In this document: one piece after another, positions 2,161 to 64,000 of the stretch
Layout: the number at the start of each line of letters is the position of its first letter
How positions within the stretch are numbered: the first letter of the stretch is position 1
Source of the DNA: Cellvibrionales bacterium
Lineage (GTDB): Bacteria > Pseudomonadota > Gammaproteobacteria > Pseudomonadales > GM7GCV1
Length of the DNA stretch: 64,000 nt
Assembly: GCA_014323765.1 (NCBI GenBank)
Contig: JACONM010000010.1
Span: 188,125-252,124 of the forward strand
Direction of reading: 5' to 3'
The notes under the pieces: generated by a model
Databases searched by the model: none
Told to the model about the DNA's origin: nothing
What the model saw: only the letters and a program-made list of their open reading frames with translations
Made by a program: the position numbers and the translations under genes

Positions 2161-2187
2161 TGGGTCTTGCCTTCTATAAAGTCATTT

Positions 2188-4809: not shown

Positions 4810-4821
4810 AGGAATATAAAA

Positions 4822-5949: not shown

Positions 5950-5970
5950 GATGCGTCCGCCGTGTTTGCG

Positions 5971-6852
5971 TTAGTTGCTTTTGCTTGCAGCAAAAAGTGT
6001 ATCCAGTTTGCTTTCATAGTCGTGATAGCCGAGATAATCATAGAGTTCCATGCGCGTTTGCATTTTTGCGACCATTGCCTTTTGATCGCCTGCTTGCAAT
6101 AGATGGCGATATACCTCTTCGGCGGCTTTGTTCATAGCGCGCACCGCCGTTAGCGGATACAGAATTATATCGACACCGTTAGTCGCCAATTCTGCCTTAT
6201 TGAACAGGGGCGATACGCCAAATTCGGTCATGTTGGCTAACAGCGGTGCGTCAATGGATTCCTTAAAGGCTTGATATTCACCCAATTCGGACATGGCCTC
6301 GGCAAAGATACCATCGGCACCTGCTTCAATATACGCGCCCATTCGGTCAATAGCAGCATTCAACCCTTCGCATGCATAGGCATCCGTGCGTGCCATAATA
6401 AAAAAATGTTCGTCCGTTTTAGCATCTACCGCTGCCTTGATCCGATCGACCATTTCTGCTTTGCCAACGATTGCCTTGTTTGGTCGGTGGCCGCAGCGTT
6501 TTTGCGCCACTTGATCCTCGATATGCACTGCCGCCACGCCTGCGCGAATAGTCTCTTTAATCGTGCGGGCGATATTAAATGCGCCGCCCCAGCCCGTGTC
6601 TATATCGACCATCAGGGGAAGATCTACCGCCGCAGTAATCCGCCGGGCATCTTCAAGTACATCGTTCATGGAAGTGATGCCTAGATCCGGCAGGCCAAAA
6701 GAAGCATTGGCGCAAGCACCCCCCGAAATATAAATCGCCTGATGACCGATTTTCTCAGCCATTAATGCGGTGTAGGCGTTAATGGTGCCAACCACCTGCA
6801 ACGGTCTATTTTCAGCTAACGCCTGCCTGAACCGAGCACCGGGCATCGGCAT
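5971..6852 (-). CDS. prpB: 2-methylisocitrate lyase
   Basis: Isocitrate lyase/PEP mutase family with the catalytic-loop motif [15 protein letters not shown]. The ORF is open to 6867, but the ATG at 6852 (MPMPGARF...) has GAGAGG 8 nt upstream, so this start is refined. Confidence 0.88.
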
Positions 6853-6963
6853 TTTCACGCCTCTCATGCGTCAAGCGCATAATCCTACAAACGGTGGCGG
6901 ATTGAAGCACAATCCCACTGATTTTGCAATGATTCGGGCTTGATAGGGGCTGAGATAAATGGG

Positions 6964-7340: not shown

Positions 7341-8279
7341 ATGCCCAAATCCAGACTCCATGCCCGCATCGGCACCCTGCGCCAGCTGGAGATTCTGCTG
7401 GCCGTCCACGATCACGGCAGCATCAACGGGGCGGCCAAGGCCCTGTTTCTCACCCAGCCGAGCGTCTCCATGCAAATGAAAAAGCTGGCTGAGGCCATCG
7501 ATGCGCCGCTCTACCACCTAGTCCACCGCAAACTGGTCTTCACCGAGCATGGCCTAGAGCTGGTCAAGACCGCGGTGGAGGTGCTCGACAGCTTCGCCAA
7601 ACTGGACATGTCGTTGCGCGCTATGAACGAGCTGCGCTCCGGCACTCTGCGGTTGGCGGTGGTCAACACCTCGCAATACTTCATCCCCCACCTGCTCGGC
7701 CCATTTTGCGAACGCTACCCCGGCATCAATGTGCAGCTGCGGATCGGCAACCGCGGCCAGACTATCGAACGCCTCAAACACGGCATCGAGGATTTTTACG
7801 TCTTCAGCCACCCGCCGCACGAGTTGGCCACCGAGCGCATTGAATTCCTCGACAACCCGCTGGTGGCCATCGCCCATGCTGGCCACCGGTTAGCGCGTCA
7901 GAAAACGGTGTCGCTGGAAGAATTTTGCGCCGAACCCTTCCTAATGCGCGAAGAAGGCTCCGGCACCCGCCACGCCATCGAGACCTTTATGCGGCAGCAG
8001 GGATCTCGGCTCAATGTGAAGATGACCATCGAAGGCAATGTCGCCATCAAGCATTCGGTGATGTCGAAGCTGGGCGTTTCCATCCTATCCGAACACACCC
8101 TCTCGTTCGGCGAGCAGGCCGGTCTCGCTACCCTGCCGGTGCGCGGCTTGCCGATCGACTCGCACTGGTTTTTTCTGTGGTCAAAGAGCAAACGACCGAC
8201 TGTGATTGCAGCCGAATTTTTGCACTATGTGGAAACCGAGGGCAAGCAGGCCCTGTTGGCTGAACTGGCCAAAAACTAA
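7341..8279 (+). CDS. LysR-family transcriptional regulator (CbbR-like)
   Basis: 312 aa with an N-terminal wHTH (INGAAKALFLTQPSVSMQMKKLAE) and a LysR substrate-binding domain of typical length. Confidence 0.9.
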   Translation: MPKSRLHARIGTLRQLEILLAVHDHGSINGAAKALFLTQPSVSMQMKKLAEAIDAPLYHLVHRKLVFTEHGLELVKTAVEVLDSFAKLDMSLRAMNELRSGTLRLAVVNTSQYFIPHLLGPFCERYPGINVQLRIGNRGQTIERLKHGIEDFYVFSHPPHELATERIEFLDNPLVAIAHAGHRLARQKTVSLEEFCAEPFLMREEGSGTRHAIETFMRQQGSRLNVKMTIEGNVAIKHSVMSKLGVSILSEHTLSFGEQAGLATLPVRGLPIDSHWFFLWSKSKRPTVIAAEFLHYVETEGKQALLAELAKN

Positions 8280-23649: not shown

Positions 23650-26277
23650 TTAGTTGAAGGTTTTGGAGAGGCGCAGGCCGATTTGGCGTTGGTCGCGGAG
23701 TGCCACATGTACGCTTTCCCGAAAAAAGTCATAAGCAGTGGCAGGGAGGTTACGAGTCCTCACATATGCGCCGGTATCAGCGATATTGTTGCCGGCAGTG
23801 GGGGCGTTTTCATTGGTCAGGTTGGTCACGTAAAACTCCATGCTCAGAGAATCGCGGCGAATTCCACTTCGCAGGTTTATCTCGGTCGATCTGGGGAGCT
23901 TGCTAAGATTGGCGTTGGATCCAAAATATGAACCGGTGTAATAGATGTCACTGCGCAAATACCAGTCGGCACTCTGATCGGCGACTGTTACCGGGCGGGT
24001 GTAGGTGCTACTCAGCGATGCCGTCCACTCAGGGAAGCGCGGTGGTCGCTGCCCTTTGGGATTCTGGTCAAGCCCAAAGATGTCGCTAAAATCACCGGCA
24101 CCTGCCCCTTCCGGGAAGGAATCTATCTCGGAACGGACATAGGCTAGGGTTCCCGCAAGAAGCAGGCTGTCGGTAGCTTGCCAAGAGCCGTCTAATTCCA
24201 GACCGAGAATATTGCTGGTAGCACCATTAGCATTGAATTCTACCGTATTGGTAACGGCAGCACTGGGAACCGGATTTGTTCGTGAGCGGCGTGCCGTGAC
24301 CGTCTCAAATGCACTGTATATTTGATCTTCCCGCTCCATATAAAAGGCTGCAAGACTGTAGGCTAGGCGACCGTTCCAGGCGGTTTGCTTCAACCCCAAT
24401 TCGTAGTTAGTGAGCGTCTCCTCATCGTATTCAGCAGTCACTCCCGGGGCTTGCCTGTTGAATTGCTCTAGCCGAGTGAGTATCAGCGTGGCATCCTCTC
24501 CCCCAGCCGGGTCCGGGATGTTTGTCGGCAAGTTCTCTGTATTGTCGAGGCGAGCTACCTGTGTATTAAAGCCACCAGGAAAGTTGCCAACACTATAGCT
24601 GGCATAGAGCATGGTGTCATCAAAGGGGCGATATTGGAGCAGTATGCGGGGCAAAAATTCTTTGTAAGTCTCATTAGGACTAAACCTGCCGATTGCTGAA
24701 GTTTCGTGTACGACAGTATCGCTGATTTCATCTTCCTGCTGGCGAGCTTCCAATATCAACTTCCACTGCTCATTAAGACGGTAGTCTATGGATCCAAATA
24801 CTCCGGTCGTCTCGGCGGTGGCGGGATCGAGCGGGTCATATAGCGAACTAAGCGCAAATCCAAATATACCTAATGGATCGTAAAATCCGCCTGCGCTACT
24901 GGTTTCAACATCTACGAGACTGACACCGAGAGACCAATTTAATTGATCGTCATAGAGAGCACTGCCCGACACCCGCACTTCAAGCCCCTTATCTTCAGTT
25001 TTGCGCACACCGCGAGATATAAAACCCGCCGGGTCTCCAGACACTGGCCGCCCGAATCGTCCGAAAGTGAAAGTTCCTGGTGGTGCCAGATCAGGGGTGG
25101 CATCAAAATCAATCATATAAAGATACTGGTCTTCATTGATATTGGCCAACACATCTAGCCGCAGAGAATCGACAATGTCATAGGAGGTGACAACAGAAAA
25201 CCGGTATCCTTCGCGCAATAAGCCAAAACCACCTAGGTCGTCGAAATCAATGTCATGGAAATTGACTGGCCTGCGATCACTTAAGATGCGAGCCGTTACT
25301 TCGTCGTAGTGAGCCTTGCTGGTGTTCAGTCCGATTTCAGACGGGGGGGGGGGGGATATCGTCCCTCTAAATTCAGTTTCCCCGCCAGAACATGCCGCCA
25401 GCAACGCAACCCCGCGCAAGTTATTCGGATTCCCGGCGGCACAGAAGTTATGGTCTGCCAGACCGGCGCGGCGAATGACGGCGGCGGGGCCGTCCTCATC
25501 GCGGTAGAAATTACCGCGCACTCGTATGTTGAGTTGTTCGATGGGTTCAAACTGTAATACGCCGCCTAGCGCCATGCTTTCTTCGCGGCCTAGGCGTTGC
25601 TTTTCGGCCGCGGCTTGGGGATCGACATTGTGCCAGTGGCCGTCTTTCTCGCGGGAATTGGCGTAGAGCCGACCGCCGAGGTTGTGTAGTAAGGGACCTT
25701 CGACGCTGGCGCGGAAATCGCGCTCGCCGCGGGGTCCGACATCCATGGAGAGATGTACGGCGGGTTCATCGGCGGGGGCTCTGGTGATGTAGTTGATCGC
25801 CCCGGAGAAGGTGTTGCGCCCGAAGAGGGCGGATTGGGGGCCTTTGATAACTTCGACTCGCTCTAGTTCCTGCACATCGATACTGTACAGCCCGCCGGTC
25901 ACCACCATGCCATCGACAAAAATGCCCGCCGTGCGGCGCAGGGGGCTAGTGCTATCCACGACAACGCCCCGGAAACGCGGCGAGACACTGATTCTGGCAG
26001 GCTCGTTATTCATGGATTCAATAAAAACACCAGGCGATGCCTTGGAAACGTCGACGATGTCATTGAAAGCGGCGGCTTCGATCTGCTGGGAATCGAAGGC
26101 GGTGATGGAGATGGGCACGTCTTGGATGGACTGCTCCTGCTTGCGGGCGGTGACCGTGAGCTCTTCGAGCATGATGGCTTCCTGCGCGTGGAGTGCTGCG
26201 CCGGGCAAGGCGAGGAGAATCGCCAGCGTTGCGGCTGCGGTGCGTGATATGAGACGGGTTGAATTTGCAAAGTTCAT
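23650..26277 (-). CDS. TonB-dependent receptor (TBDR-1)
   Basis: Refined start is the ATG at 26277, with GGAGG 8 nt upstream. It has a signal peptide ...ALPGAALHAQE, plug-domain sequence (EELTVTARKQEQSIQDVPISIT, VEVIKGPQSALFGRN), and a C-terminus LRLSKTFN. Confidence 0.9.
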   Translation of the reverse strand: MNFANSTRLISRTAAATLAILLALPGAALHAQEAIMLEELTVTARKQEQSIQDVPISITAFDSQQIEAAAFNDIVDVSKASPGVFIESMNNEPARISVSPRFRGVVVDSTSPLRRTAGIFVDGMVVTGGLYSIDVQELERVEVIKGPQSALFGRNTFSGAINYITRAPADEPAVHLSMDVGPRGERDFRASVEGPLLHNLGGRLYANSREKDGHWHNVDPQAAAEKQRLGREESMALGGVLQFEPIEQLNIRVRGNFYRDEDGPAAVIRRAGLADHNFCAAGNPNNLRGVALLAACSGGETEFRGTISPPPPSEIGLNTSKAHYDEVTARILSDRRPVNFHDIDFDDLGGFGLLREGYRFSVVTSYDIVDSLRLDVLANINEDQYLYMIDFDATPDLAPPGTFTFGRFGRPVSGDPAGFISRGVRKTEDKGLEVRVSGSALYDDQLNWSLGVSLVDVETSSAGGFYDPLGIFGFALSSLYDPLDPATAETTGVFGSIDYRLNEQWKLILEARQQEDEISDTVVHETSAIGRFSPNETYKEFLPRILLQYRPFDDTMLYASYSVGNFPGGFNTQVARLDNTENLPTNIPDPAGGEDATLILTRLEQFNRQAPGVTAEYDEETLTNYELGLKQTAWNGRLAYSLAAFYMEREDQIYSAFETVTARRSRTNPVPSAAVTNTVEFNANGATSNILGLELDGSWQATDSLLLAGTLAYVRSEIDSFPEGAGAGDFSDIFGLDQNPKGQRPPRFPEWTASLSSTYTRPVTVADQSADWYLRSDIYYTGSYFGSNANLSKLPRSTEINLRSGIRRDSLSMEFYVTNLTNENAPTAGNNIADTGAYVRTRNLPATAYDFFRESVHVALRDQRQIGLRLSKTFN
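25343..25355. repeat. 13-nt G homopolymer (C13 on the coding strand) inside TBDR-1, read in frame
   Basis: Counted directly: 8 G in block 25341-50 plus 5 G in block 25351-60. It is translated as S-P-P-P-P in ...GTISPPPPSEIG.... Confidence 0.95.
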
Positions 26278-26435
26278 GGATGAATCCTCCATTTTCTGCT
26301 TGCAGTGATTGCGTTGTGATAGTAGAGCAGACCGGATGCTGCTTTGTATCCCCTTATATCCGCCGGATTGTGGCGCATTGCGGGGGGTTAGTCAACCTTT
26401 CTTTACATTTTTATGCCGAAATAATTGATGTTTTT

Positions 26436-48287: not shown

Positions 48288-50819
48288 TTAAAACCGATAC
48301 TCTAGGTCTACGCCTAGCGATTGGCGCGGCGAGTCGTGGACGAAGGAGCCGCCGAACTCTGGGGCGGTTACTACTTCGTTTAGGTATTCCTCATCGGTGA
48401 TATTTTTGCCCCATGCGGCGACGGTTAGGTTTTCGCTGCTGAAGGCTACCCGCAAATTGAACAAGTCATAGGGGTCGCGCTTGGTGCGACTAAATTCGCC
48501 TTCGCCAAACCCCCTTGCCGTAAAGAGGTTGGGGAGCTTGTTGGCCTGCACCGCATGGAACCAAGTATCGCCGACATAGGCCCAATCCAGCCGAGCGGTC
48601 ATTTGCCAGCCGCGGGATATATCTGTGTTGAAGGTGGCTCCTAGGTTGTAAGTGGAATCGGCGGCGTAGGGCACTTCGTTGCCGACGGTGTAGGGGCGGT
48701 TTTGGCTTTTTTCAATTTCCCCGCTCAGCCAACTGCCGGCGGCGTAAAGAGACAACTGGTCATTGATGGCTATATTGGCATCCAGTTCAAATCCTTGAAT
48801 AGAGACTTCATCGATATTGGTAACAGTCCGCAACAAACCGAAGGGGCCGACGTAGAATTCGAAAAACTGCATATCGTCCACATCGGTATTGTAGGCGGCG
48901 GCATTGAGGGTGAAGCGACCGTCCGCCCAGCTGGATTTCAGCCCCAACTCAAGTGAACGTGATACTTCTTTCTCAAATTCGTCGTTGATATTCAAGACCC
49001 GAAGATCAAATGGAGTCGTTTCGCCTGCTCGGGTCAAGCCACGATAAAACTCTTCGATAGTCGCCTTAGTTCCCTGCGAATTGAAGCCGCCGCTTCTAAA
49101 GCCAACGCCATAGCTGGCGTAGAGAGACCAACTGTCCGCGGGTTTCCAGTTTAGGGTCAGCTTGGGTTGTGCTTGAGAAAAATCCTTGCTGCGGTCGTCA
49201 ATGGTGTCGTTAAAACGAAAAGCCGGATTGATAGGATCAAGTTCTCCGTTTCCATCAGCATCTATGGTGGCCGCATCCTCATTGGGTACTTGGTTGGAGA
49301 CGTCGCGCTCCTCACGGTCGTAGCGCAGGGCGAAGGCGACTTCTAGGTCCGGAGATAGATCGTATGCCACTTGACCGAACAGGGCGTAGATGCGGCTGTC
49401 GAAAATATCGTGGTACAGCAGATCGGTTGGGCTATCGCTGTCCGCGGCGTTGTAGGCCCGCCTAGCAATCGGCCTCTCTCGGCCTTGATCATCCGCTGTT
49501 TGTTCGCCTTGAGCCACCACCACTTCACGCTCCACATCGCCAAAATAAACCCCGCCCAGCCAGCGTACAGACTCTCCCCCCCCGGCTGGCGAGGCAAACC
49601 GAAGCTCTAGGCTAAAGTCTTTTTGGTTGCGCTCTTGGTATTGATAGCCATCGCAGGTGGTGGGGCTGTAAGGTGATAAAAATTCAGTAGCACCTCGAGG
49701 GTCACCAGTACCGTATCCGAACGGTGGATTGTACCGTAACGTACCATCCTCGTGATCTTTGGCTCTTGCGGCGAAAGAAGCTATACAGTGCGGCTCATTT
49801 GAATAAATATCAAAGCCAGCACTAGTGCCATCAGTCAGAAAATGATTTTCCTGATCGTTGTAGGAAAATACTCCAGTGAGATCTGCCCAATCGAGTTGAT
49901 AATCAAACTTGGTTGCAAAGTTGAAATTATCCTGTTCGTTTTCCGGTTCGATATTGGTCAGATACTGGTATTTGTGGTCGTTAACATCCTGATAAAAAGC
50001 GGGGAAACTGAGTGCCGCTGCCGCATCCACCAAATGCACCGACGCATTGTAGCCAATAGCCGCCCCCTCAGCTTGACTCAGCGCAATGCGGGTATCCCAT
50101 GCCATGGTATCGGTGGGGGACCAGATAAGGCGGGCATTGAGGGCTTGCTCTTCGTAATTATCGACCACTTTTTTATTGAGGTAGTCGTTGCGGAAGTGGC
50201 CGTCGGTCTCGCGGCTTACTAGGCTTAGTCGGCCGGCCAATGATTCGCCGAGCGGGCCGCTGACAACACCGCGCAGCACTTGGGTGGAGTTATTGCCAAT
50301 GCCTAGCCCCAGTTTGCCTTCCGTCTCATCGCCGGGTTTTTTGGTATTGACGATGATCGCGCCAGCTAGAGCATTGCGACCGTAGAGGGCCCCTTGCGGA
50401 CCTTTGAGGATCTCGATTTGTTGAACATCGGCGAGTTCACGGTTGAAAGCGTTGGGGTTAGTCAGGAGTACACCGTCCACCACGTAGGCGAAGCTGGCTT
50501 CCGCATCGCGGCCTGTGTTAATGCCGCGGATGCTGACTTGGGTATCGCCGATCTCCGCCGTGTTGGTCATGGTTACCCCGGGGGTTAGCATGATGAAGTC
50601 CTCGGGCCGCTCTATGCCGGCATCGCGGATGGCACCCTCGGTGAGCACGGTAATAGAGTCCGGCACATCTTGCAGGCTTTCTTCCCGCAGCCGGGCGGTG
50701 ATCACTATTTCTTCCACGACCATGCCTGAGTCGGGGGCGGCTAATAGCGGCGCGGTTGGCATTATTGCGGCGGTCAACAGGAAAGCTGCGGCTAGGCGGG
50801 TTTTGCTAATGGGTTGCAT
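48288..50819 (-). CDS. TonB-dependent receptor (TBDR-2)
   Basis: 843 aa with a signal peptide, plug motifs (EEIVITARLREESLQDVPDSITV, IEILKGPQGALYGRN), and a C-terminal ...DLEYRF. Confidence 0.9.
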   Translation of the reverse strand: MQPISKTRLAAAFLLTAAIMPTAPLLAAPDSGMVVEEIVITARLREESLQDVPDSITVLTEGAIRDAGIERPEDFIMLTPGVTMTNTAEIGDTQVSIRGINTGRDAEASFAYVVDGVLLTNPNAFNRELADVQQIEILKGPQGALYGRNALAGAIIVNTKKPGDETEGKLGLGIGNNSTQVLRGVVSGPLGESLAGRLSLVSRETDGHFRNDYLNKKVVDNYEEQALNARLIWSPTDTMAWDTRIALSQAEGAAIGYNASVHLVDAAAALSFPAFYQDVNDHKYQYLTNIEPENEQDNFNFATKFDYQLDWADLTGVFSYNDQENHFLTDGTSAGFDIYSNEPHCIASFAARAKDHEDGTLRYNPPFGYGTGDPRGATEFLSPYSPTTCDGYQYQERNQKDFSLELRFASPAGGGESVRWLGGVYFGDVEREVVVAQGEQTADDQGRERPIARRAYNAADSDSPTDLLYHDIFDSRIYALFGQVAYDLSPDLEVAFALRYDREERDVSNQVPNEDAATIDADGNGELDPINPAFRFNDTIDDRSKDFSQAQPKLTLNWKPADSWSLYASYGVGFRSGGFNSQGTKATIEEFYRGLTRAGETTPFDLRVLNINDEFEKEVSRSLELGLKSSWADGRFTLNAAAYNTDVDDMQFFEFYVGPFGLLRTVTNIDEVSIQGFELDANIAINDQLSLYAAGSWLSGEIEKSQNRPYTVGNEVPYAADSTYNLGATFNTDISRGWQMTARLDWAYVGDTWFHAVQANKLPNLFTARGFGEGEFSRTKRDPYDLFNLRVAFSSENLTVAAWGKNITDEEYLNEVVTAPEFGGSFVHDSPRQSLGVDLEYRF

Positions 50820-52742: not shown

Positions 52743-54623
52743 TCAGGGGGGACTCTTCAGCCGCCGCCACAGGGTCGTCTGGCTAATGCCGAGGTAACCA
52801 CTGACTTTGGCTTTATCGCCACCGAACTTTTTCATGGCATCCATGATCAGGCTCCATTCCTGCTCTTTGAGGGTGCCGGCTGGGGCTGCGGCGGAAGGAG
52901 TCGGAGGATCGCTTTTCTTGGACCGTTCCGCGGACCATTCCGGCAACAGAGAGGGTAGGGCATGCACAAATTGTTCCGGATCGGTAAATATCGGGCGACT
53001 CACCAGCAAGCGTTCCACTGCATTTTCCAGCTGGCGCACATTGCCTGGCCATGCGTAGCTGCGAAGTTGCTTGCCACAGAGGGAGAAAATTTCCGCTATA
53101 TCGACTTCTAAGCGATACCGCTGTTTGATTTTTTCTGCAAAATAGTTGGCGATCGCGGGAATATCGGCGGGTCGCTCGCGCAGGGCCGGCAAATCGATGG
53201 TGAAGACGTTGACGCGATAAAACAGGTCTTCGCGGAAGGTGCCGGCTTTTACCGCATCTAGCAAATTCTGATTGGAGGCGCACACAAACTTCAGGTGCAG
53301 GGATATTTCTTTATTGGTGCCGAGCGGCCTTATTCTGCGGTCTTGCATGGTGCGCAACAGTTTGGCCTGTTGGGTTAGGGGGAGCTCGCTGATTTCATCG
53401 AGGAAGAAAACGCCATTGTTGGCGGCTTCCAACAAGCCGGTGCGCCCGCCGCGCTTGGAGGTGGTGAAGGCCCCATCGACGTAGCCGAATAGCTCGCTTT
53501 CGAATAATTCTTCCGGTACGGCACCGCAGTTAATCGCGATAAACTGGCCGCCCTTGAACGGCCCGCTGCGGTGAAGTTCGCGGGCGATTAATTCTTTGCC
53601 GGTGCCGGTCTCCCCGGTAATCAACACGGTGCCGGCCGTGGCGGCATAGGTGGGCAAAATGCGGTGGATCTGCGCCATTTTTTCAGACGCATAAACCATC
53701 TGATGATCGGTCGGTGTTTGCCCTTTGGCTGCGCTGGTTTTGGCCTCGCCGGTGCGCATACTGTATAGATAGGCGCGTTTCTTGCCTTTGATGTTGAGTA
53801 GCTGTCGGGTAAAAAAACGCGGGGTGCCATTGAGTTCTACATGGAATTGTTTGCCGCCGCGCCCGGTGCCCGTCTGAATGAGTTGCGCCAGCCGCAAGGC
53901 ATCTGCCTCGTCGGCGGCACCGAGCTTGGCCATGGCGGTCTGGTTATAGCGCAACAGATCGCCAGCAAAGTTCGCCACCAGCACCGGCGGCCCGGCACCT
54001 TCTAGAACCGAATTATCAATGGCGTGGTTTAATTTTTGCTCGATAGTTTCCTCGCCCTTCGCGATGGCGGCTTCGATAAGTTCGCGGCAGGATGAGCGCG
54101 AATAGACGAGCAGGCTTTTCAAATTTTGTTGCTCGGCCAGATCGCACACATGGCTGGAACCTATCACGACATCGATGTTTTCCGGAATATGCAAATACAG
54201 AAGTTCACGCGCTTCATTCGGGGTGCTGTAGGTTTTATGGATAAGTTCCGCAGTGAAGTACTGGCGAATAAAGTCCAGCACCCGATATTCTTTTTGGTAG
54301 GTGATTAGCAGTATTTTTTTGCCGATCTTGGCCGCTTTATGCAGGGCATCCAAAATGTCCCCTTCGGTGACGGCGATTCCTAGGGTGGGCACGGATAGCA
54401 GCGACTGTAAATAGCTGGCATTGGCACCGGCACTAATGACTAGATCGGCATCCTTACCCTCTACCAGTTCGTCAACGCTGCTGTCCTGCGTTAGGATGTG
54501 GTCGGCGATCTCAAAATGAGCCTGCCCGGCAAATTCTGGGTGAACCACGCTCATCAGCTGGCTGAATTTGCGATAGCCGACGATCAATATCTTTGGTTTA
54601 TCCCGACCGATTATTCTCCACAT
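52743..54623 (-). CDS. sigma-54-dependent transcriptional activator, PrpR family (PrpR_N sensor + AAA+ + Fis HTH)
   Basis: 626 aa. The N-domain resembles PrpR (KILIVGYRKFSQL...ISAGANASYLQ). AAA+ motifs are VLITGETGTGKELIAREL, GAFTTS (GAFTGA variant) and FFLDEISELP. The C-terminal HTH is YLGISQTTLWRRLK. Confidence 0.9.
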   Translation of the reverse strand: MWRIIGRDKPKILIVGYRKFSQLMSVVHPEFAGQAHFEIADHILTQDSSVDELVEGKDADLVISAGANASYLQSLLSVPTLGIAVTEGDILDALHKAAKIGKKILLITYQKEYRVLDFIRQYFTAELIHKTYSTPNEARELLYLHIPENIDVVIGSSHVCDLAEQQNLKSLLVYSRSSCRELIEAAIAKGEETIEQKLNHAIDNSVLEGAGPPVLVANFAGDLLRYNQTAMAKLGAADEADALRLAQLIQTGTGRGGKQFHVELNGTPRFFTRQLLNIKGKKRAYLYSMRTGEAKTSAAKGQTPTDHQMVYASEKMAQIHRILPTYAATAGTVLITGETGTGKELIARELHRSGPFKGGQFIAINCGAVPEELFESELFGYVDGAFTTSKRGGRTGLLEAANNGVFFLDEISELPLTQQAKLLRTMQDRRIRPLGTNKEISLHLKFVCASNQNLLDAVKAGTFREDLFYRVNVFTIDLPALRERPADIPAIANYFAEKIKQRYRLEVDIAEIFSLCGKQLRSYAWPGNVRQLENAVERLLVSRPIFTDPEQFVHALPSLLPEWSAERSKKSDPPTPSAAAPAGTLKEQEWSLIMDAMKKFGGDKAKVSGYLGISQTTLWRRLKSPP

Positions 54624-55603: not shown

Positions 55604-55767
55604 TGCGTCTCTCCATCCTTTAATAGGGGCTATGGGCGCAAGGTACCACAGATACGGGGGACATAAAACCGGGCGACACGGCGGACACCGTGCTGGTAGA
55701 CTGTGCGCCCATGTTGCCCGCCCGGTTGCGTCGGCTGTGGGTACACTCATCGCCTGAACGCAAGCCA

Positions 55768-57102
55768 ATGCAAAAAAGCCCCGTGCGCCGCCGCTGGATT
55801 ATCACTGTCGCCGCCTGCATCCTGATTTTGGCTGCGCTGGTCGGCTTCAAAGTGTTGCAAATTCGCGGGGTGCTCGCCTTTGTCGCCGCGCTGCCGGAGC
55901 CGGCGGAAACCGTGCATGCGGTCACGGTCGAGGTTCGGGAGTTGCACCAGCAGATCGACACCCTCGGCACCGTGGTGGCCCCGCAGAGCGTCGAGCTGCG
56001 CAATCAGCTGGATGGGCGGGTGGTGGCGGTGCATTTTCGCGGCGGCGAGGCGGTGAGTGCGGGGCAGGTGCTGTTGGAACTGGACACCCGTGAGGAACGC
56101 GCCGGGCTAAAAGGGGCGCGGGCGCGGGCGGAATTGGCGCGGTTGGAATTGGAGCGGGCGCGCAAGCTGCGTGCCAGCCGCACCGTGAGCCAGGAACGGC
56201 TGGACCAGGCGCAAGCGCAACATCAGGTGGCACTGGCCGATATAGAAATGCTTGAGGCGCAGATCGACAAAAAAACCCTGCGGGCCCCGTTCGCCGCGCA
56301 CACCAGCTTGCACCAGTTTGAAGTGGGCGATTTTCTGCCGGCCAATAGCTTGATTACCGAACTGGTCGGCAGTGGCGAATTCGTCTGGGTGGACTTTTCC
56401 CTGCCCATCGAGCAGGCGCATATCGGCTTGGGCAACCGGGTGCAGGTGTACTTGCCCGGGGTGTCTGGCGCGGCGGTTGAAAGTCCGGCTGGCCCGGTGG
56501 GCGATGAGTTGAATGGTGCGGTAACCGATGAGTCGGCTGGCGCAACGGGTGAGGGGTCGATCAGTGCAATGGCCGCGGTACAGGATGGCGTGGCGGTTGC
56601 GGGGGCGGGTGCATTGCGGGTTGCGGAGCCGGATGATGCGGCGATCGAGGTGCGGGATGATGCGGCGGGCGAGTTGCCGAATAATGCGATGGTCGCGGGG
56701 CAAATTATCGCCAAAAATCCCGCTCTCTCGGCGCGCTCGCGTACCCTAGACTATCGCGCTCGGCTGCCCGCCCATGCGCAGCTGCCGCACAATAGCTTGG
56801 TCAATGTGCGGATCGAGGGTAGCCGGGCGCGGCGACTGCCGGTGATTCCGGTGACCGCCTATCGCATCGACCAGCTCGGGGCTTTTGTCTATGTGCTGGA
56901 ACGGGGCGCGGGCGAGGAGGGTCATCGGGCACAGCGGCGGGCGGTGGTGGCCGGGCAGCGCGGCGGGCAGACCATCGCCATTGAAAGCGGCTTGGTCGGC
57001 GGTGAGTTGATCGCCACTCGGGGGGCGTTCAAACTGCGCGAGGGCATTCTGGCGAATGTTGCGCCGGCGAGTTCCTCCGATGGCACCGGGGTGGCGCAGT
57101 AA
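55768..57102 (+). CDS. membrane-fusion (HlyD/RND periplasmic adaptor) family protein, orphan
   Basis: Refined start is the ATG at 55768 (MQKSPVRRRWIITVAACILILAALV, a TM anchor). It has a lipoyl-like domain plus a coiled-coil hairpin (LELDTREERAGLKGARARAELARLELERARKL). Confidence 0.7.
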   Translation: MQKSPVRRRWIITVAACILILAALVGFKVLQIRGVLAFVAALPEPAETVHAVTVEVRELHQQIDTLGTVVAPQSVELRNQLDGRVVAVHFRGGEAVSAGQVLLELDTREERAGLKGARARAELARLELERARKLRASRTVSQERLDQAQAQHQVALADIEMLEAQIDKKTLRAPFAAHTSLHQFEVGDFLPANSLITELVGSGEFVWVDFSLPIEQAHIGLGNRVQVYLPGVSGAAVESPAGPVGDELNGAVTDESAGATGEGSISAMAAVQDGVAVAGAGALRVAEPDDAAIEVRDDAAGELPNNAMVAGQIIAKNPALSARSRTLDYRARLPAHAQLPHNSLVNVRIEGSRARRLPVIPVTAYRIDQLGAFVYVLERGAGEEGHRAQRRAVVAGQRGGQTIAIESGLVGGELIATRGAFKLREGILANVAPASSSDGTGVAQ

Positions 57103-57142: not shown

Positions 57143-58741
57143 ATGAATTTTCTCGACTATTTCATTGTGGCGATCTATCTGGCCGGCATGCTCGGCTTGG
57201 GGCTGATGATGCGCAAGCAGAGCTCGGAGACTTCCTATTTTCTGGGCGATAAAAGCCTGAATTGGTTTCCGCTTGCGCTGTCGACCATGGCGACTCAGCT
57301 GTCGGCGATCAGTTTTATCTCCGCGCCGGCGTTTGTCGGGTTGCGCGAGGGGGGCGGGCTGAAGTGGCTGACCTATGAGTTTGCCGTGCCGCTGGCGATG
57401 ATCTTTGTCATGTTTGTGATTGCGCCGGCTCTGTACCGCGCCAAAGTGGTCAGTATTTACGATTTTCTGGAACGCCGCTTCGGGCGTTCTAGCCGGCTGT
57501 TGATCAGTGCGTTGTTTCAGATTGTGCGCTCGTTTAGCACCGGCATTATGGTCTACGCCTGTGCGATTGTGTTGCAGGCGGTGTTGGGCATTCCATTCTG
57601 GCAATCCATCGTGGGGGTCGGAGTGGTTGCGCTGATCTATTCGACCACCGGCGGCATGAAAGCGGTGGTCTACAGCGATGCCATTCAGATGGTGCTGATA
57701 TTTGGCGGGATTATTTTGGTGGCGGGGTTTGCGCTGCATCAGGTGGGCGGCTTTGGGGCTTGGTTTAATGCGGTCGAGCCGGCGCGGCTGTTTGCGGTCG
57801 ATTTTTCTTCTTTTGGGTTTGGCGGCGATGAGTTTGGCTTTTTGCCGATGCTGTTTGGCGGGTTTGTGCTGTATGTGTCTTATTACGGGTGCGACCAGAC
57901 GCAAACGCAGCGCATTCTGTCGGCGCGGGATATGCCGGCGGCGCGGCGGCTGTTGCTGGCCAATGGGCTGTTGCGTTTTCCGCTGGTGTTGATCTATTGC
58001 TTTGCCGGGCTGGTGGTGGGCGTGGCGGTGATGCAGTCGCCGGACCTGCTGGCACAGATACCGGCGGACCGTCCGGATTTTATGATGCCGGTGTATATCG
58101 TCGAGCAGCTGCCGCATGGGTTGATCGGCTTGCTGCTGGTGGCGATTATGGCGGCGGCGATGTCGTCGTTTAGCTCGACCATGAACTCGCTGGCCGCCGT
58201 GACTTTGGAGGACATTCGCACTCTGGGATTGAAATTCGCCAGTCCCCGACTGGAAATTATCGGGGCGCGGGCCTTGTCGGTGGGGTGGGGGCTGCTGATT
58301 ATTGTGCTGTCCTTTTTTGCTGGTTCCATTGCGCCGACGGTGATCGAGGCGATCAACAAGGTCGGCTCGGCCCTGTACGGGCCGATTCTGGGCGTGTTCG
58401 GGCTGGCGATTCTGACCCGCAATCGGTCGGCGGTGGGGGTCAATGCTGGGCTGCTTGTTGGGTTGGCACTCAATTTGTATTTCTGGAAGTTTGTGCCGGA
58501 GCTCTTCTGGATGTGGTGGAACCTGATTGGCTTGCTGGTGACTCTCGTGGTGGCTGTTTTGGTGGGTTTTTTCTTTCCCGGGCGGGCGGCTATGGAGGAT
58601 GCGCCGGCGTTTGCTCAAGAGGATCGCTGGAATGGCACCGCGGCGAACCGTCGCAGCGTGGGCATTTTGGCGGGGTATTTTGGCTTAATTGTGGCGATCA
58701 GCGTTGCGCTGGGCACTCTGGCGATGGGCGGAGAATTTTAG
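57143..58741 (+). CDS. sodium:solute symporter (SSS/SLC5 family, PanF/monocarboxylate-type)
   Basis: 532 aa with about 13 TM helices. N-terminus: DYFIVAIYLAGMLGLGLMMRK...FLGDKSLNWFPLALSTMATQLSAISFISAPA. Confidence 0.85.
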   Translation: MNFLDYFIVAIYLAGMLGLGLMMRKQSSETSYFLGDKSLNWFPLALSTMATQLSAISFISAPAFVGLREGGGLKWLTYEFAVPLAMIFVMFVIAPALYRAKVVSIYDFLERRFGRSSRLLISALFQIVRSFSTGIMVYACAIVLQAVLGIPFWQSIVGVGVVALIYSTTGGMKAVVYSDAIQMVLIFGGIILVAGFALHQVGGFGAWFNAVEPARLFAVDFSSFGFGGDEFGFLPMLFGGFVLYVSYYGCDQTQTQRILSARDMPAARRLLLANGLLRFPLVLIYCFAGLVVGVAVMQSPDLLAQIPADRPDFMMPVYIVEQLPHGLIGLLLVAIMAAAMSSFSSTMNSLAAVTLEDIRTLGLKFASPRLEIIGARALSVGWGLLIIVLSFFAGSIAPTVIEAINKVGSALYGPILGVFGLAILTRNRSAVGVNAGLLVGLALNLYFWKFVPELFWMWWNLIGLLVTLVVAVLVGFFFPGRAAMEDAPAFAQEDRWNGTAANRRSVGILAGYFGLIVAISVALGTLAMGGEF

Positions 58742-58744
58742 GCG

Positions 58745-60016
58745 GTGGCCGCCGGTGCCGAGCGCGCCCTGCTGGAGAGTGCCTTTCACGCGGCAGTCGC
58801 CGCCTGTCAAGCGGCGCGTTGCCTGCCGGCGCGGTTGCCGACCACCCCGCCGGCGGGCAAAACTATAGTGCTGGGCGCGGGCAAGGCCGCCGCGGCCATG
58901 GCGGAGGTCGCCGCGCAAACTCTCACTGGGGAGCTGACCGGGTTGGTGGTAACGCGGCGCGGGGACGGCATCGGTCGGCGGGCCAGGCCGATTGAAATTA
59001 TGGAAGCGGCGCACCCGCTGCCGGACGACTCTTCGCAACAGGCGGCGGTGCGCATTCTGGAATTGGCGCATGCGGCTGGGGCGGCGGACCGGGTGATTTT
59101 TTTAATCTCCGGCGGCGGTTCGGCGTTGTTGTCTTGCCCGGCGGCGGGGGTAACGGGGGCGGAAAAGCGGGCCTTAAATCAGGCCCTGCTGCACAGTGGG
59201 GCGACCATCGCCCAGATCAATCTGGTGCGCGCTCATCTTTCTAAAGTGAAGGGCGGTCGATTGGCGGAGGCGGCCCTGCCGGCGGAGCTGTTGACCTTTA
59301 TTATTTCCGATGTGGTGGGCGATGACCCGGCTCTAGTCGCTTCTGGGCCGACTGTGCCCGCCGCCCTGGACCCTGAGCGGGCGCGGCAGATTCTGGATGA
59401 TTATGGGATCGCGGTGCCGGCGACCGTGGCCGCCGCGATTGCTGCCGCCAAACCGGTCGCTGCTGCTGCCGCCCATCCGGTCGACATTATTGCCGGCGCG
59501 GCGGATGCCCTCGCGGCGGTGGCGGCGTTTTTGACGGAGCGCGGGTGGCGGGTGTTGGACCTTGGCGCGGATTTGGAAGGGGAGGCCGCCGCGGTCGGGC
59601 GGGCGCACGGGCGGCAGGTGCTCGCCCGGCGTGCTAAGCAGGTGAACGGCGAGCGCATCGCCATGATTTCTGGCGGGGAACTGACGGTTACGGTTACTAA
59701 TCCGGACGGTCGCGGCGGCCCCAATTTGGAGTATCTGACCGGCCTGATGCTGAGCTTGGACGGCGCGGCGGGGGTGCATGCGTTGGCTTGCGACAGCGAT
59801 GGCATCGATGGCTCGGAGGACAACGCCGGCGGCTACCTTGCGCCCGATTCCCAGCAGCGTGCCATAACCGCCGGCTTGGATCCCGCGGCACTGCTGGCCG
59901 CCAATCGCAGCTACGATATTTTTCACGCCATCGGCGGGCTAATCAAAACCGGCCCGACCCAGACCAATGTCAACGATATTCGCATTATCCTGATCGACCC
60001 GGCAGGGCGCGACTAG
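58745..60016 (+). CDS. glycerate 2-kinase / hydroxypyruvate reductase-like (DUF4147 + MOFRL)
   Basis: 423 aa with VLGAGKAAAAMAE, ISGGGSALL and a C-terminal CDSDGIDGSEDNAGG...GPTQTNVNDI. The GTG start is 4 nt after the symporter stop. Confidence 0.75.
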   Translation: MAAGAERALLESAFHAAVAACQAARCLPARLPTTPPAGKTIVLGAGKAAAAMAEVAAQTLTGELTGLVVTRRGDGIGRRARPIEIMEAAHPLPDDSSQQAAVRILELAHAAGAADRVIFLISGGGSALLSCPAAGVTGAEKRALNQALLHSGATIAQINLVRAHLSKVKGGRLAEAALPAELLTFIISDVVGDDPALVASGPTVPAALDPERARQILDDYGIAVPATVAAAIAAAKPVAAAAAHPVDIIAGAADALAAVAAFLTERGWRVLDLGADLEGEAAAVGRAHGRQVLARRAKQVNGERIAMISGGELTVTVTNPDGRGGPNLEYLTGLMLSLDGAAGVHALACDSDGIDGSEDNAGGYLAPDSQQRAITAGLDPAALLAANRSYDIFHAIGGLIKTGPTQTNVNDIRIILIDPAGRD

Positions 60017-60048
60017 GTAAGGCGGAGCGCAGCTAGGCAAACAAACGG

Positions 60049-61353
60049 ATGACACCAATGAGCAAAGACAAGAACGCCCTAGATCAACGGGCCATTTCCA
60101 TTCTGCAGGGCAACGACCGCGGCGGTTACACGGTGCCGACGCACGGCCTGTATCCCTATCAGTGGAATTGGGATTCGGCTTTTGTGGCTTTAGGTTTTGC
60201 GGTGTTTGACCCCGACCGCGCCCTGCGCGAGCTGGAGACGCTGTTTGAAGGGCAGTGGCGCAATGGCATGTTGCCGCACATTATCTTCCGGGCGGATGAT
60301 CCGGATTATTTTCCGGGGCCCGGCGTGTGGCGCACCGGCACTCGTCCGCCTTCCTCCGGTATCAGCCAACCGCCGGTGGTGGCGAGCATTGTCTGGCGGC
60401 TTTGGGAACGCTGGGCGGAGGGGCCGCAACGGGCGCGACTCAAGGGGCTATTCCCGAAATTGCTGGCTTTGCACCGCTGGTTTCACAGTGCGCGTGACCC
60501 CGGCGGGCAGGGGGTGGTGGTGGCGACTCATCCTTGGGAGTCTGGGCGCGATAATTCGCCGGAATGGGATGCGCCCCTGGCGGCGGTCGACACTTCTGGA
60601 GTCGAACCGTATCGGCGGCGCGATTTGAAGCACGTCAATGCCGCCATGCGCCCGACTGCGGCGCAGTACGATGGTTATGTCGCGCTGGTCGAATACGGGC
60701 GCGAGCAGGGCTGGGATACGCTGAAAATCGCCCGGGAAGGGCCCTTTCGGATGGCGGATGTCGGGTTGTCGTTTATTTTGCTGCGGGCGGACCGCGATCT
60801 GTTGCGGCTCGCGCAGGTCCTGGGCGACGAGCGCGCTGCGGCGGAAATTCAGGCTTGGATCGAGCGCGGGCTGGCTGGGGTGGAGCAGCTTTGGGACCCG
60901 GCGGCGGACACTTTTTGCTCGTGGGATCTGATTACCGGTCGCGCCTCGGGACAGCTGACCAGCGCGTCTTTTTTGTACGCCTACGCCGATGCGGGGACGG
61001 ACGCGCAACGGCAACGCATGCAGGGGCACTGGCAACGCATCGCCGAGCAAGTGCGCTTTACCCTGCCGAGTTTTGACCCGGATGAATCCGCCTTTGACCC
61101 CGCCTGCTACTGGCGCGGGCCTTGCTGGGCGGTGGTCAATCATATGGTGGCCCGCGGGTTTGCCGAACAGGGGCAGGGGGAAGCGGCGGCGCGAATCAAG
61201 GCTGACACCCGCCGGCTGATCGCAACGCACGGTTTCGCGGAAGCCTTCGACCCGGTCGCGGGCACGGCCAGTGGCGGCGGCGAATTTTCGTGGACGGCCG
61301 CCATGTGGCTGGCTTGGGCGGGGGTCGATGCAACGGATGAGGAGCAGCAATGA
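60049..61353 (+). CDS. GH63-like glucosylglycerate/mannosylglycerate hydrolase (MGH/GgH family)
   Basis: 434 aa. LYPYQWNWDSAFVALG, QWRNGMLPHIIF, GISQPPV, HPWESGRDNSPEWD, YWRGPCW and FSWTAAMWL match, from memory, the characterised mycobacterial GgH and Thermus/Rubrobacter MgH. Confidence 0.7.
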   Translation: MTPMSKDKNALDQRAISILQGNDRGGYTVPTHGLYPYQWNWDSAFVALGFAVFDPDRALRELETLFEGQWRNGMLPHIIFRADDPDYFPGPGVWRTGTRPPSSGISQPPVVASIVWRLWERWAEGPQRARLKGLFPKLLALHRWFHSARDPGGQGVVVATHPWESGRDNSPEWDAPLAAVDTSGVEPYRRRDLKHVNAAMRPTAAQYDGYVALVEYGREQGWDTLKIAREGPFRMADVGLSFILLRADRDLLRLAQVLGDERAAAEIQAWIERGLAGVEQLWDPAADTFCSWDLITGRASGQLTSASFLYAYADAGTDAQRQRMQGHWQRIAEQVRFTLPSFDPDESAFDPACYWRGPCWAVVNHMVARGFAEQGQGEAAARIKADTRRLIATHGFAEAFDPVAGTASGGGEFSWTAAMWLAWAGVDATDEEQQ

Positions 61354-61718
61354 ACGCAACCATCAACTATCAGGTCGGCGACAGCGACGAGCGGCCCTGG
61401 GGCCGCTGGCAGGTGCTGGCCACCGGCACCGGCTTCGCCATCAAAAAAATTGCCGTGAACCCGGGCGAGCGGCTGTCGCTGCAAGATCACCAGCATCGCA
61501 GCGAACATTGGATTGTGCTGCGCGGGCAGGCGGAGGTGACTCTAGGAGACGAAACTTTGCGACTGGACGCCAATGGGACCGTTTTTATCCCGCCCCAAAC
61601 CCGCCACCGCATCCACAATGTTGGGCAGGAGGTGCTGGAATTTATCGAGGTGCAGACTGGCGAGACGCTGGATGAGGCCGACATCCGCCGCTACCAAGAC
61701 CGTTACGGGCGGGTCTGA
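61350..61718 (+). CDS. cupin-domain protein, type II phosphomannose isomerase-like
   Basis: 122 aa. RPWGRW...PGERLSLQDHQHRSEHWIVLRGQAEV...IPPQTRHRIHN is the PMI type II cupin signature. It overlaps the upstream gene as ATGA. Confidence 0.7.
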   Translation: MNATINYQVGDSDERPWGRWQVLATGTGFAIKKIAVNPGERLSLQDHQHRSEHWIVLRGQAEVTLGDETLRLDANGTVFIPPQTRHRIHNVGQEVLEFIEVQTGETLDEADIRRYQDRYGRV

Positions 61719-61747
61719 AACGGGCCCAAAACGGGTCCAAAACAGGT

Positions 61748-62653
61748 ATGGACAAGCTCTACGGCGCCATCGAGGGCGGCGGCACCAAGTTTGTTTGCGC
61801 GGTCGGCGGCGGTGGCGAGCAGATCCTCGCTAAAACCGTTATTCCGACCCGCGATCCCGAAGTTACTCTGGCATCGGTGGCGCAATTTTTTCAGCAGCAA
61901 ACGCAACGACATGGGCCGCTAGTTTCCGTGGGTTTGGGCAATTTCGGGCCGCTGGACATCGATCCAAAATCCCGCACCTACGGGCAGATCATGCAGACCC
62001 CAAAACCGGGCTGGGCCGGCTTTGATCTGGTCGCCGACCTGATGCGCCGGTTGGCCGTGCCGATCGCGCTCGACACCGATGTGAATTGCGCCCTGCTGGC
62101 CGAGGCCCAATACGGTGCGGGGCGCGGTTGCGGCGATTTGGTGTATTTGACCGTGGGCACCGGCATCGGCGGCGGGGTGTTGAGCGGTGGGTGGCGGGTA
62201 CGGGGCACGGGGCACCCGGAGATCGGCCATCTGTTTGTGCCAAAACACCCGGATGACGGGTTCGCCGGTGCCTGCCCTTTTCACGGCGACCAGTGCATCG
62301 AGGGGCTGGCCAGCGGCCCGGCTATCGAACAGCGTTGGGGGTGCCCGGCGCAGAATTTGCCCGCCGCGCATCCCGCCTGGGAACTGCAGGCGCACTATCT
62401 GGCTTTGCTTTGCCACAATCTTTTTATGACTGTGGCCCCGGTGCGCATCATTCTCGGCGGTGGGGTCATGGCGCAGGCGCAGCTCTTCCCCATGATTCGC
62501 ACCCGATGTGCCGCGCTGGCTAACGGCTATGGGGTGCCGCCCGGCGGGCGCGATTGGGAGGCGGCCATCCGCCCGGTCGCGTTGGGCGGGGAGGCGGGAA
62601 TCCGCGGTGCTTTTCTGATCGCCGCAGCGGACGGGGTAAATGATCGCGTTTGA
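61748..62653 (+). CDS. ROK-family hexokinase (fructokinase/mannokinase-like)
   Basis: 301 aa with GAIEGGGTKFVC (ATP-binding), LTVGTGIGGG, and the ROK zinc motif CPFHGDQCIEG. Confidence 0.8.
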   Translation: MDKLYGAIEGGGTKFVCAVGGGGEQILAKTVIPTRDPEVTLASVAQFFQQQTQRHGPLVSVGLGNFGPLDIDPKSRTYGQIMQTPKPGWAGFDLVADLMRRLAVPIALDTDVNCALLAEAQYGAGRGCGDLVYLTVGTGIGGGVLSGGWRVRGTGHPEIGHLFVPKHPDDGFAGACPFHGDQCIEGLASGPAIEQRWGCPAQNLPAAHPAWELQAHYLALLCHNLFMTVAPVRIILGGGVMAQAQLFPMIRTRCAALANGYGVPPGGRDWEAAIRPVALGGEAGIRGAFLIAAADGVNDRV

Positions 62654-62791: not shown

Positions 62792-64000
62792 ATGTTCAAG
62801 CTCAATGCTTATTTCACTGCGACTGCGGTCGCTTTTCTCGTTTCCTTGCCCGGCTTTGCCGCGGCCCAAGGGGATGCCCTCGACAGCGGCATGTTGGAGG
62901 AATTGGTGGTCACCGGCACCTCCCGCGCCCGCTCGGCTTTTGATTCCCCGCTGACGGTGACCCAGTTTGGCGAGGAAGAATTGGAAGCCCTGTCTTCCAA
63001 CAGCCAAGCCGATATTCTGCGCTTTGTGCCCGGCTTGAAAGCTGAGGGGGGGGGGGGGAAGTTGCCGCCAATATCTTTGTGACGGGCTTGCCGTCCGGCG
63101 GACAATACGCCTTTACCCCGCTACAATACGATGGCATTCCGGTATTCAGCACTTTCGGTTTGAACTCGTCCGCTTTCGATGTCTATATGCGCAATGATTT
63201 GGGCATCGAGCGGTTGGAATATGTATCGGGCGGGGCCTCCAACCTATTTGGGGCCGGTTCCGTAGCCGGGCTCATTAACTACATCAGTAAAACCGGCAGC
63301 GCCGACCCAGAAACCACTCTGCAATTTGAAATGGCTGAAGAGGGCCGCATCCGGGCGGATTTTGCTACCAGTGGTCCAATGTCCGAAGGGTCGGACAATT
63401 ATTACGCGCTGTCTGGCTATTACCGCTACGACGAAGGACCAATCGACACCGGCCTGCCGACCGAAGGTTTTCAGCTGCGCGGCAACTTTAAGCGGGAATT
63501 TGCGGACGGTTCCGGCAGCTTTACCATTTACACCCAGCTAATTGACGACAAGGTGCAATTCTTTCTGCCTTTCCCATTAGGAGCCGATCAGAGCCGCACC
63601 ACCGGCAACGATGGAGCGGAAGTTATGACAGTGCAAACCGCCGAGGCCGACCGCCTGACCTACCGCACCCCAGACGGCATTTTCACCACTCCGATCCGCG
63701 ATGGCGTGGCCACCAAGGGCGGCATGATCGCTTTTGACCTGACCAAAGAATTGGCCGATGGCTGGCAGTTTAATAGTAAGGCGAAATATGCCTCTTATCG
63801 GCATCAATTTAATCTTTTTCTGGATGGTGATGGTATTACCAATCAACCATTATCTTTAGAGGACTATCTAGATTCTCGTGATTTTGGCACCGAACCAGAA
63901 ACAGATGAGGAGGGCACCGTAGTCAACGAAAATATTGATGCGCCCAATGCCACAGCTACCTTCACCGCCACCGGCCAAGAAGTGCCCGATGGTTATTTGC
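62792..64000 (+). pseudogene. TonB-dependent receptor (TBDR-3), reading frame broken at a G13 tract; 3' end beyond the window
   Basis: The ATG at 62792 gives a signal peptide (MFKLNAYFTATAVAFLVSLPGFAAAQG) and a TonB box/plug (EELVVTGTSRARSAFDSPLTVT), then stops at 63082 after the G-run. The frame entered at 63058 (EVAANIFVTGLPSGGQYAFTPLQYDGIPVF...GGASNLFGAGSVAGLINYISK...) stays open to 64000. Confidence 0.75.
63046..63058. repeat. 13-nt G homopolymer inside TBDR-3, out of frame
   Basis: Counted directly: 5 G in block 63041-50 plus 8 G in block 63051-60. Confidence 0.95.

Follow-up and report, generated by a model that had tools for sequence, protein, structure and literature searches.

A lineage-specific poly-G tract as a candidate slipped-strand contingency locus in a TonB-dependent receptor gene of a sponge symbiont

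The stretch of DNA considered herein, referred to as the window, comprises 64,000 nt of contig JACONM010000010.1 (positions 188,125 to 252,124 of the forward strand) from the Cellvibrionales bacterium GM7GCV1 (assembly GCA_014323765.1), a symbiont of a marine sponge. It harbours three genes for TonB-dependent receptors (TBDRs), the last of which, TBDR-3, extends beyond the end of the window and contains a long run of guanines close to its 5′ end. This run, termed tract 1, is examined here as a candidate switch for phase variation of the receptor, and the elements that define it are as follows.

62792..63082, plus strand: 5′ part of TBDR-3 at G13, encoding a signal peptide, the TonB-box-like sequence LEELVVTGT, the start of the plug and seven out-of-frame codons, closed by TGA
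63046..63058, plus strand: tract 1, a G13 homopolymer in the plug-coding region of TBDR-3 (codons 85-90 of 848), in frame at G14
63058..64000, plus strand: remainder of TBDR-3, encoding the rest of the plug and the start of the barrel in the other frame

Direct reading of the window confirms the 13 consecutive guanines at 63046-63058 on which the original prediction was built, and also that they break the frame of TBDR-3. At this length the open reading frame (ORF) beginning at ATG 62792 runs from MFKLN...RFVPGLKAEGGGG into KLPPISL and terminates as ...RFVPGLKAEGGGGKLPPISL at the TGA of 63080-63082; the frame entered at G 63058 reads EVAANIFVTGLPSGGQYAFTPLQYDGIPVF..., is receptor-like and meets no stop up to base 64000. 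Rebuilding the site with 11-15 G gives early stops at G12, G13 and G15, and an open gene at G14 and G11. Two lengths had been proposed to fuse the parts, and of these G14 does so as expected, giving ...AEGGGGEVAANIFV..., but G11, although restoring the frame, yields AEGGGEVA, with one glycine fewer. The remaining structural claim, that all four glycine codons are GGG and are flanked by GAG and GAA, is likewise correct (GAG GGG GGG GGG GGG then (G)AA).

That the gene encodes a TBDR, as had been proposed, is evident from several features. The product fused at G14 matches the Pfam Plug domain PF07715 (3e-14, residues 50-160) and retains the plug motifs of an alignment consensus from 14 homologues (EEIVVTGTS...SQADIL..VPG.KAEGGGGEVA), and the C-terminal barrel (PF00593), which lies beyond the end of the window, is present in the 848-aa product of two other assemblies, L001 and L005. 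In both of these the gene, tract 1 aside, is intact, with Plug and barrel. The signal peptide and TonB box (MFKLNAYFTATAVAFLVSLPGFAAAQ..., then LEELVVTGT, against EEIVVTGTS in the consensus) were read by eye rather than with a dedicated predictor, and the nearest solved structures are distant relatives only (E ~1e-9). Tract 1 falls within the first 10 % of the ORF. The NCBI annotation splits the gene, listing the downstream piece as a separate 752-aa receptor. Inspection of the TBDR-3 5′ region for a riboswitch or other RNA element, and for promoter or terminator signals, returned nothing useful and no Rfam element.

The peptide encoded across tract 1, AEGGGGEVA(x)N, is nearly invariant amongst more than 100 database homologues (Alpha- and Gammaproteobacteria, Bacteroidota) and 79 orthologues from GTDB genomes, which identifies G14 as the ancestral, in-frame and functional length. 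Within the 79 orthologues the motif is almost always written with GGC or GGT, GGG accounting for 12 of 313 glycine codons (4 %) and never occurring twice in one gene, and the longest G run at this position is 5. The comparison of orthologous loci proposed with the original prediction thus gives a uniform result, with all 79 genes in a single frame and free of any long run, and tract 1 is lineage-specific. In this genome GGG makes up 23.5 % of glycine codons, a GAG with four GGG codons behind it has a probability of ~1.4e-3, and none of the 20 other Gly3-5 peptides in the window contains more than two GGG. The homologues of TBDR-3 are 45-62 % identical to it. A protein-based scan for TBDR-3 in metagenome_contigs gave no match, in a collection that apparently does not hold these sponge samples.

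Tract 1 is one of two such runs in the window. Base composition predicts 0.007 G runs of at least 13 nt per 64 kb, such that tract 1 is far beyond chance, and the longest G/C runs observed are two 13-mers followed by one 8-mer, with none other above 8. Elsewhere, in the 643 kb that surround 80 orthologous TBDR genes, G/C runs go up to 9 nt and no further, and a survey of 99 genomes describes prokaryotic genes as generally poor in poly-G/C tracts, which are under-represented there (PMC2831843). All three of the longest G/C runs in the window sit in its three TBDR genes, which together span 10 % of the sequence; the chance of this placement is ~0.01 for both 13-mers and ~0.001 for all three runs. 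The second 13-mer and the 8-mer, with the genes that contain them, are listed below.

23650..26292, minus strand: TBDR-1, an intact 880-aa TonB-dependent receptor (Pfam Plug 1.6e-16, barrel 6.4e-31)
25343..25355, minus strand: tract 2, C13 on the coding strand of TBDR-1, in frame as TCC CCC CCC CCC CCG (S-P-P-P-P)
48288..50819, minus strand: TBDR-2, an intact 843-aa TonB-dependent receptor holding the third-longest G/C run
49576..49583, minus strand: G8 run in TBDR-2, coding strand GGG GGG GGA, with no other G/C run of 8 bases in the window

The run in TBDR-2 appears stable, since the protein is identical in 5 contigs. Tract 2 has a different history from tract 1. In homologues its site reads QTPTG, PLPSD, RVPNA or EVPTG, with one invariant proline, no conserved PPPP and no indel, and this variability without change in length indicates that the four prolines were made by amino-acid replacements in a tolerant segment. 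Two independent routes have therefore led to 13-14-nt G/C runs, both in receptor genes, suggesting that selection acted on the tracts themselves and not on the residues they encode. The surveyed sequence amounts to ~82 kb of a 1.9-Mb genome, being the 64-kb window and 17.6 kb of flank, and the flank is without such tracts. No other notable simple-sequence repeats were returned for the window by TRF. As a separate observation, the plus strand is strongly asymmetric in composition (G 19168 vs C 17031), and both 13-mers are G on that strand.

GM7GCV1 was the only Cellvibrionales metagenome-assembled genome (MAG) of its source study (1.9 Mb, 40 scaffolds, 89 % complete), and originates from Lamellodysidea herbacea clade III collected in Guam (BioProject PRJNA320446). 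The study terms it a 'consensus population genome', for which HiSeq 2500 reads were assembled with the Celera Assembler. In that study 12 % of the 16S reads from clade III sponges belonged to the symbiont group, against 0 % in seawater, and the nearest 16S relative of the group, likewise from a sponge, was only 90 % identical. This sponge-specific distribution, together with the 1.9-Mb genome, points to a host-restricted symbiont and not to a free-living bacterium, and the 'environmental' gammaproteobacterium supposed by the original prediction is instead an abundant, sponge-specific partner. Its niche is of the host-adapted type in which contingency loci classically occur. The G+C content of the window is 56.6 %, as against 61.0 % in the table of the source study for GM7GCV1.

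The length of tract 1 was compared with that in five other contigs carrying the neighbouring ROK gene, all ~99.8-99.9 % identical to the window.

L001 (ENA): tract 1 G14, intact 848-aa product
L005 (Logan): tract 1 G14, intact 848-aa product
L003 (JGI): tract 1 G12, split gene
L004 (MEGAHIT): tract 1 G11, after which the contig runs out in error-ridden sequence
L002 (ENA): tract 1 represented by a 10-N scaffold gap, junk sequence and G20, split gene

Including the window, the six assemblies therefore read 11, 12, 13, 14, 14 and 20 G. Across a 153-kb alignment of the window with all fetched contigs, true indels are confined to tract 1 and to one base beside an N gap at tract 2, the latter a 1-nt deletion in L007 within error-laden sequence next to that gap. 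Of the other assemblies read, three extend to tract 2 itself, and all agree with the window in its effective length; two of the three show T-C13 read as C14 and A-to-G miscalls adjoining the run. Substitutions after homopolymers are a known Illumina signature (PMC11878640), and breaks, gap joins or phasing-type miscalls occur at the tracts in L002 (11299-11361), L007 (5413-5552), L008 (2760-2791) and at the contig end of L004. Look-ups of the split products for contigs with further tract lengths led in one case only to the known JGI contig, the other product not being on record. It may also be noted that these homopolymers limit contiguity and yield spurious amino-acid variants in database proteins (e.g. 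P0129, with AIPPPPP).

The possibility that tract 1 as a whole is an artefact of the assembler or of poly-G reads was considered and rejected. HiSeq 2500 uses four-colour chemistry, which gives no such poly-G reads, and six assemblies from several pipelines agree on a run of at least 11 G with both flanks in register.

A second difference between the assemblies lies immediately downstream of the run.

63081, 63087, 63093 and 63108, plus strand: four single-nucleotide polymorphisms (SNPs), synonymous, at third codon positions, 23-50 nt downstream of tract 1

These separate the window from all four assemblies readable there, the fifth being error-ridden at its contig end, and in the adjoining 3.7 kb the window is identical to L003 and L005. 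Phasing errors were rejected as their source, as none copies the preceding or following base and all are third-position synonymous changes. From their pattern the four SNPs are probably a second haplotype, and the cluster beside tract 1 suggests either such a haplotype or a short recombination patch. The G13 of the window may thus belong to a distinct allele, linked to these four private SNPs, and may represent either a real OFF sub-population or an n-1 consensus error.

Taken together, we judge on balance that tract 1 is probably a slipped-strand contingency locus whose ON length is G14. The case rests on an ON length that coincides with the conserved protein, on abnormal codons, on a gene that is otherwise intact and on a host-restricted symbiont with a small genome. 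It rests further on the different origin of tract 2, on the placement of the three longest G/C runs in TBDR genes, on tract 1 being the one site of true indels between assemblies, on its position early in the ORF and on its likeness to the poly-G tracts of Neisseria hmbR/hpuA. A homopolymer of 13-14 G is prone to slippage in any bacterium, and OFF variants must on that account arise continually; that the switching is exploited is an inference from the codon evidence and from the confinement of the runs to receptor genes. Accounts that treat the variation in length as biological draw further, but not decisive, support from two comparisons, namely that tract 2, equal in length and from the same libraries, appears invariant, and that a four-SNP haplotype lies beside tract 1; both lean towards real variation. 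The original prediction of a phase-variable receptor caught in its OFF state is hence upheld in part: its tract and frame logic stand, and the otherwise intact gene, the sister tract and the differences in length between assemblies support it. Less secure is the G13 of the window as a real OFF state, since a miscount of the homopolymer in short reads would look the same.

Several considerations weigh against a contingency locus. All six assemblies derive by Illumina HiSeq sequencing with TruSeq from one specimen and its trichome-enriched sub-sample, and their length differences are consequently not those of independent populations. In the supplementary sample table SAMN04939364 is sponge GUM7D2 and SAMN04939365 the trichome enrichment of the same specimen; no entry of this table could be assigned to SRR3667357, SRR10406138 or the JGI sample, and no source beyond the one specimen and BioProject was identified for any comparison contig. 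Indel rates are sharply raised inside homopolymers, and polymerase chain reaction (PCR) stutter is deletion-biased in Illumina data (PMC11878640); moreover, amplification of a G14 tract gives n-1 products almost as abundant as n (PMC3786947). A G14 read as G13 is thus an expected artefact. Contigs end or are gap-joined at both tracts, with miscalls following the poly-G, and contigs 100 % identical to the window elsewhere still read G12 and G14, from which it follows that the spread in length reflects heterogeneous reads from one population. No close orthologue is available to date tract 1, the best being 62 % identical in the protein search and 62 % in the GTDB genome scan. A scan of 241 million metagenome records for an exact pattern, a tract of at least 12 G followed by ARGTNGCNNNNAAY (the E-V-A-x-N motif), gave 45 matches, none in a TBDR. 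The ~82 kb surveyed, out of 1.9 Mb, also counts on this side.

The same facts give weight to the simplest competing account, namely that nearly all cells carry G14 with the gene ON, that G13 is an n-1 error from PCR stutter, Illumina indels or the Celera consensus, and that the tract is an accident with no role in switching. Sequencing or assembly error had been put forward with the original prediction as the trivial alternative, and with one specimen, Illumina data and lengths of 11-20 it remains fully alive. Two of the five other assemblies of this specimen are in frame at G14 with an intact 848-aa product, three that are identical or nearly so elsewhere read 12, 13 and 14, both tracts adjoin contig breaks, N gaps and miscalls of the phasing type, and the source MAG is itself a population consensus. 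Nevertheless, an error in length leaves unexplained why two 13-14-nt G/C runs should occur only in TBDR genes and against codon usage, why tract 2 keeps one effective length across assemblies when tract 1 varies, and why the G13 of the window is linked, within 50 nt, to four synonymous SNPs not of the error type and seen in no other assembly. A G14 run is, in addition, physically liable to slip in any cell. We consider this account the main rival to a contingency locus, and the less likely of the two. Far less credible is a fixed pseudogene, in which a 1-bp deletion permanently inactivated TBDR-3 during reduction of the symbiont genome. Such a loss would suit a small, host-restricted genome and the split of the gene in the NCBI annotation as well as in the G12 and G20-gap assemblies, but the sole lesion lies at a reversible tract, the 848 codons contain no further stop or frameshift, conservation persists in the plug motif and across the remainder of the protein, and two assemblies from this population carry the gene in frame. 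The multiple or irreversible lesions and lost conservation of a decayed gene were not found in TBDR-3. Recoding, by which a genomic G13 would still yield the full receptor through transcriptional slippage on the G run or -1 ribosomal frameshifting, is if anything more improbable again. The downstream frame is indeed -1 relative to the upstream frame and meets it on a long homopolymer, and rescue by slippage has a precedent in Buchnera, as cited in PMC2831843. Against this, all 79 orthologues lack a run and encode the motif in one frame, the DNA of other assemblies is itself in frame, no Rfam element surrounds the site, and the conserved frameshift at a slippery site with a stimulator that marks programmed recoding was not found. 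To our knowledge, documented slippage by RNA polymerase concerns A/T runs.

If tract 1 is indeed a contingency locus, its operation may be envisaged as follows. In the symbiont lineage all four glycine codons of AEGGGGEVA have turned to GGG, and with the flanking GAG and GAA they form an intrinsically hypermutable run. Slipped-strand mispairing at 13-14 G during replication would then toggle the frame at codon 90 of 848. At G14 (or G11, G17) the full 848-aa outer-membrane receptor would be made and the gene would be ON, and at G13 or G12 only a ~96-140-aa periplasmic fragment would result, with no receptor (OFF). This fragment would comprise the signal peptide, the TonB box and part of the plug, ending within 8 to ~50 codons, with no barrel and no surface epitope. 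The sister C13 tract in TBDR-1 is currently ON, and the symbiont population of a single sponge would probably hold cells with different receptor sets. For this to be so the heterogeneity in length would have to be biological, and the switching reversible, frequent and adaptive, as we infer. The likely benefit would be escape from phages or host recognition targeting the receptors, or the shedding of unneeded transporters. TBDRs are classic phage receptors, making phage escape a plausible gain from TBDR-3 switching, albeit one that is speculation. A broader proposal, which we advance only tentatively, is that poly-G/C contingency tracts in several TBDRs make the clonal sponge population a mosaic of receptor ON and OFF states, plausibly as an escape from receptor-targeting phages or from recognition by the host. 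If so, no earlier phase variation based on simple-sequence repeats would have been described in a marine invertebrate symbiont, and the TBDRs involved would be ones for the uptake of non-iron substrates.

With regard to what TBDR-3 may transport, the genes immediately upstream are informative.

57143..62653, plus strand: co-directional genes just upstream of TBDR-3, encoding an SSS symporter, a glycerate 2-kinase-like protein, a glucosylglycerate-hydrolase-like glycoside hydrolase, a PMI-type cupin and a ROK kinase

The functions of these genes were assigned from matches below the NCBIfam cut-offs, and no siderophore, haem or B12 model of NCBIfam matched TBDR-3 above its cut-off. Sequence similarity of this kind suggests that TBDR-3 serves a locus for uptake of sugar/glycerate compatible solutes and not of iron, and that it is more likely an importer of a carbon substrate than an iron receptor. 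The region 57143-62653 has the appearance of a utilisation locus for glucosyl- or mannosylglycerate, compatible solutes that the cyanobacterial partner of the sponge could supply. Further upstream, a membrane-fusion-protein-like gene (55690-57102) is called as a single 444-aa gene in some assemblies and in pieces in the rest, and tandem repeats of 24 nt and 15 nt occur at 56121-56688. In one ENA scaffold (L001) 100-N gaps at 5226-5325 and 7520-7619 replace window positions 56426-56775 and 58968-59367, a region that may be strain-variable or repeat-rich. Elsewhere in the window, 982-6867 and 52743-54623 harbour methylcitrate-cycle genes (PrpF, AcnD, citrate-synthase-like, isocitrate-lyase/phosphoenolpyruvate-mutase-like) and a PrpR-type sigma-54 activator, so that the symbiont, for all its reduced genome, retains propionate catabolism.

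Amongst known systems the closest likeness is to hmbR and hpuAB of Neisseria meningitidis and Neisseria gonorrhoeae, where a poly-G tract (G8-G15) lies inside the ORF of a TBDR, its length modulo 3 sets the ON or OFF state, the bacterium is host-restricted and several receptors per genome switch independently (PMC3786947). The symbiont is alike in the placement of its tracts, in frame logic and in host restriction, and would be alike in independent switching. Of the hallmarks of hmbR/hpuA-type loci, long G/C runs within ORFs (G13, C13) are present here, as is a repeat number that sets the frame of an otherwise intact gene, with G14 giving the conserved protein. The symbiont receptors differ from the neisserial haemoglobin receptors in that they are not of the haem or siderophore type, all specific NCBIfam models scoring below cut-off, and in that TBDR-3 stands beside sugar/glycerate genes; furthermore, the animal colonised is a marine sponge, which has no adaptive immunity, the run of tract 1 coincides with a conserved Gly4 plug motif, and switching is predicted. 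Campylobacter jejuni and Helicobacter pylori similarly combine multiple long G/C homopolymers in surface-structure genes with a small, host-adapted genome, but these are AT-rich Campylobacterota with dozens of tracts and measured switching, whilst the symbiont is a gammaproteobacterium (Cellvibrionales) of 57 % G+C with ~82 kb surveyed. Stochastic ON/OFF control of nutrient receptors in a symbiont is known from the SusC-like TBDRs and capsules of Bacteroides, for which escape from crAss-like phages has been proposed; there it proceeds mainly by invertible promoters and recombination, and not by homopolymer slippage within ORFs (PMC8375218; 10.1101/2024.11.17.624012). The poly-A tracts of Buchnera and Blochmannia are also long homopolymers with frameshifts in reduced-genome symbionts, but are described in PMC2831843 as A/T runs that arise genome-wide from AT mutational bias, whereas those of the sponge symbiont are G/C runs, against codon preference, and in the sampled region are confined to TBDR genes. 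No account of phase variation in sponge symbionts came up in full-text searches of the literature.

The anatomy of the tract is convincing, and unexpected for the niche of a sponge symbiont; real ON/OFF heterogeneity goes beyond what short-read assemblies supply. If switching does occur, then 'frameshifted' surface genes in MAGs can be biology, and not errors or pseudogenes. Conversely, a population consensus from short reads is no reliable guide to whether a 13-14-nt run is ON or OFF, and genes of this sort are broken in two by annotation pipelines, as by that of NCBI here. In mammalian pathogens, contingency loci built on homopolymers are textbook knowledge. Should the reading of tract 1 as a contingency locus be correct, bet-hedging by homopolymer would also serve a symbiont, whether beneficial or commensal, whose animal host lacks adaptive immunity, and would act on receptors for nutrient uptake, which would in turn indicate phage pressure or host filtering as the driver.

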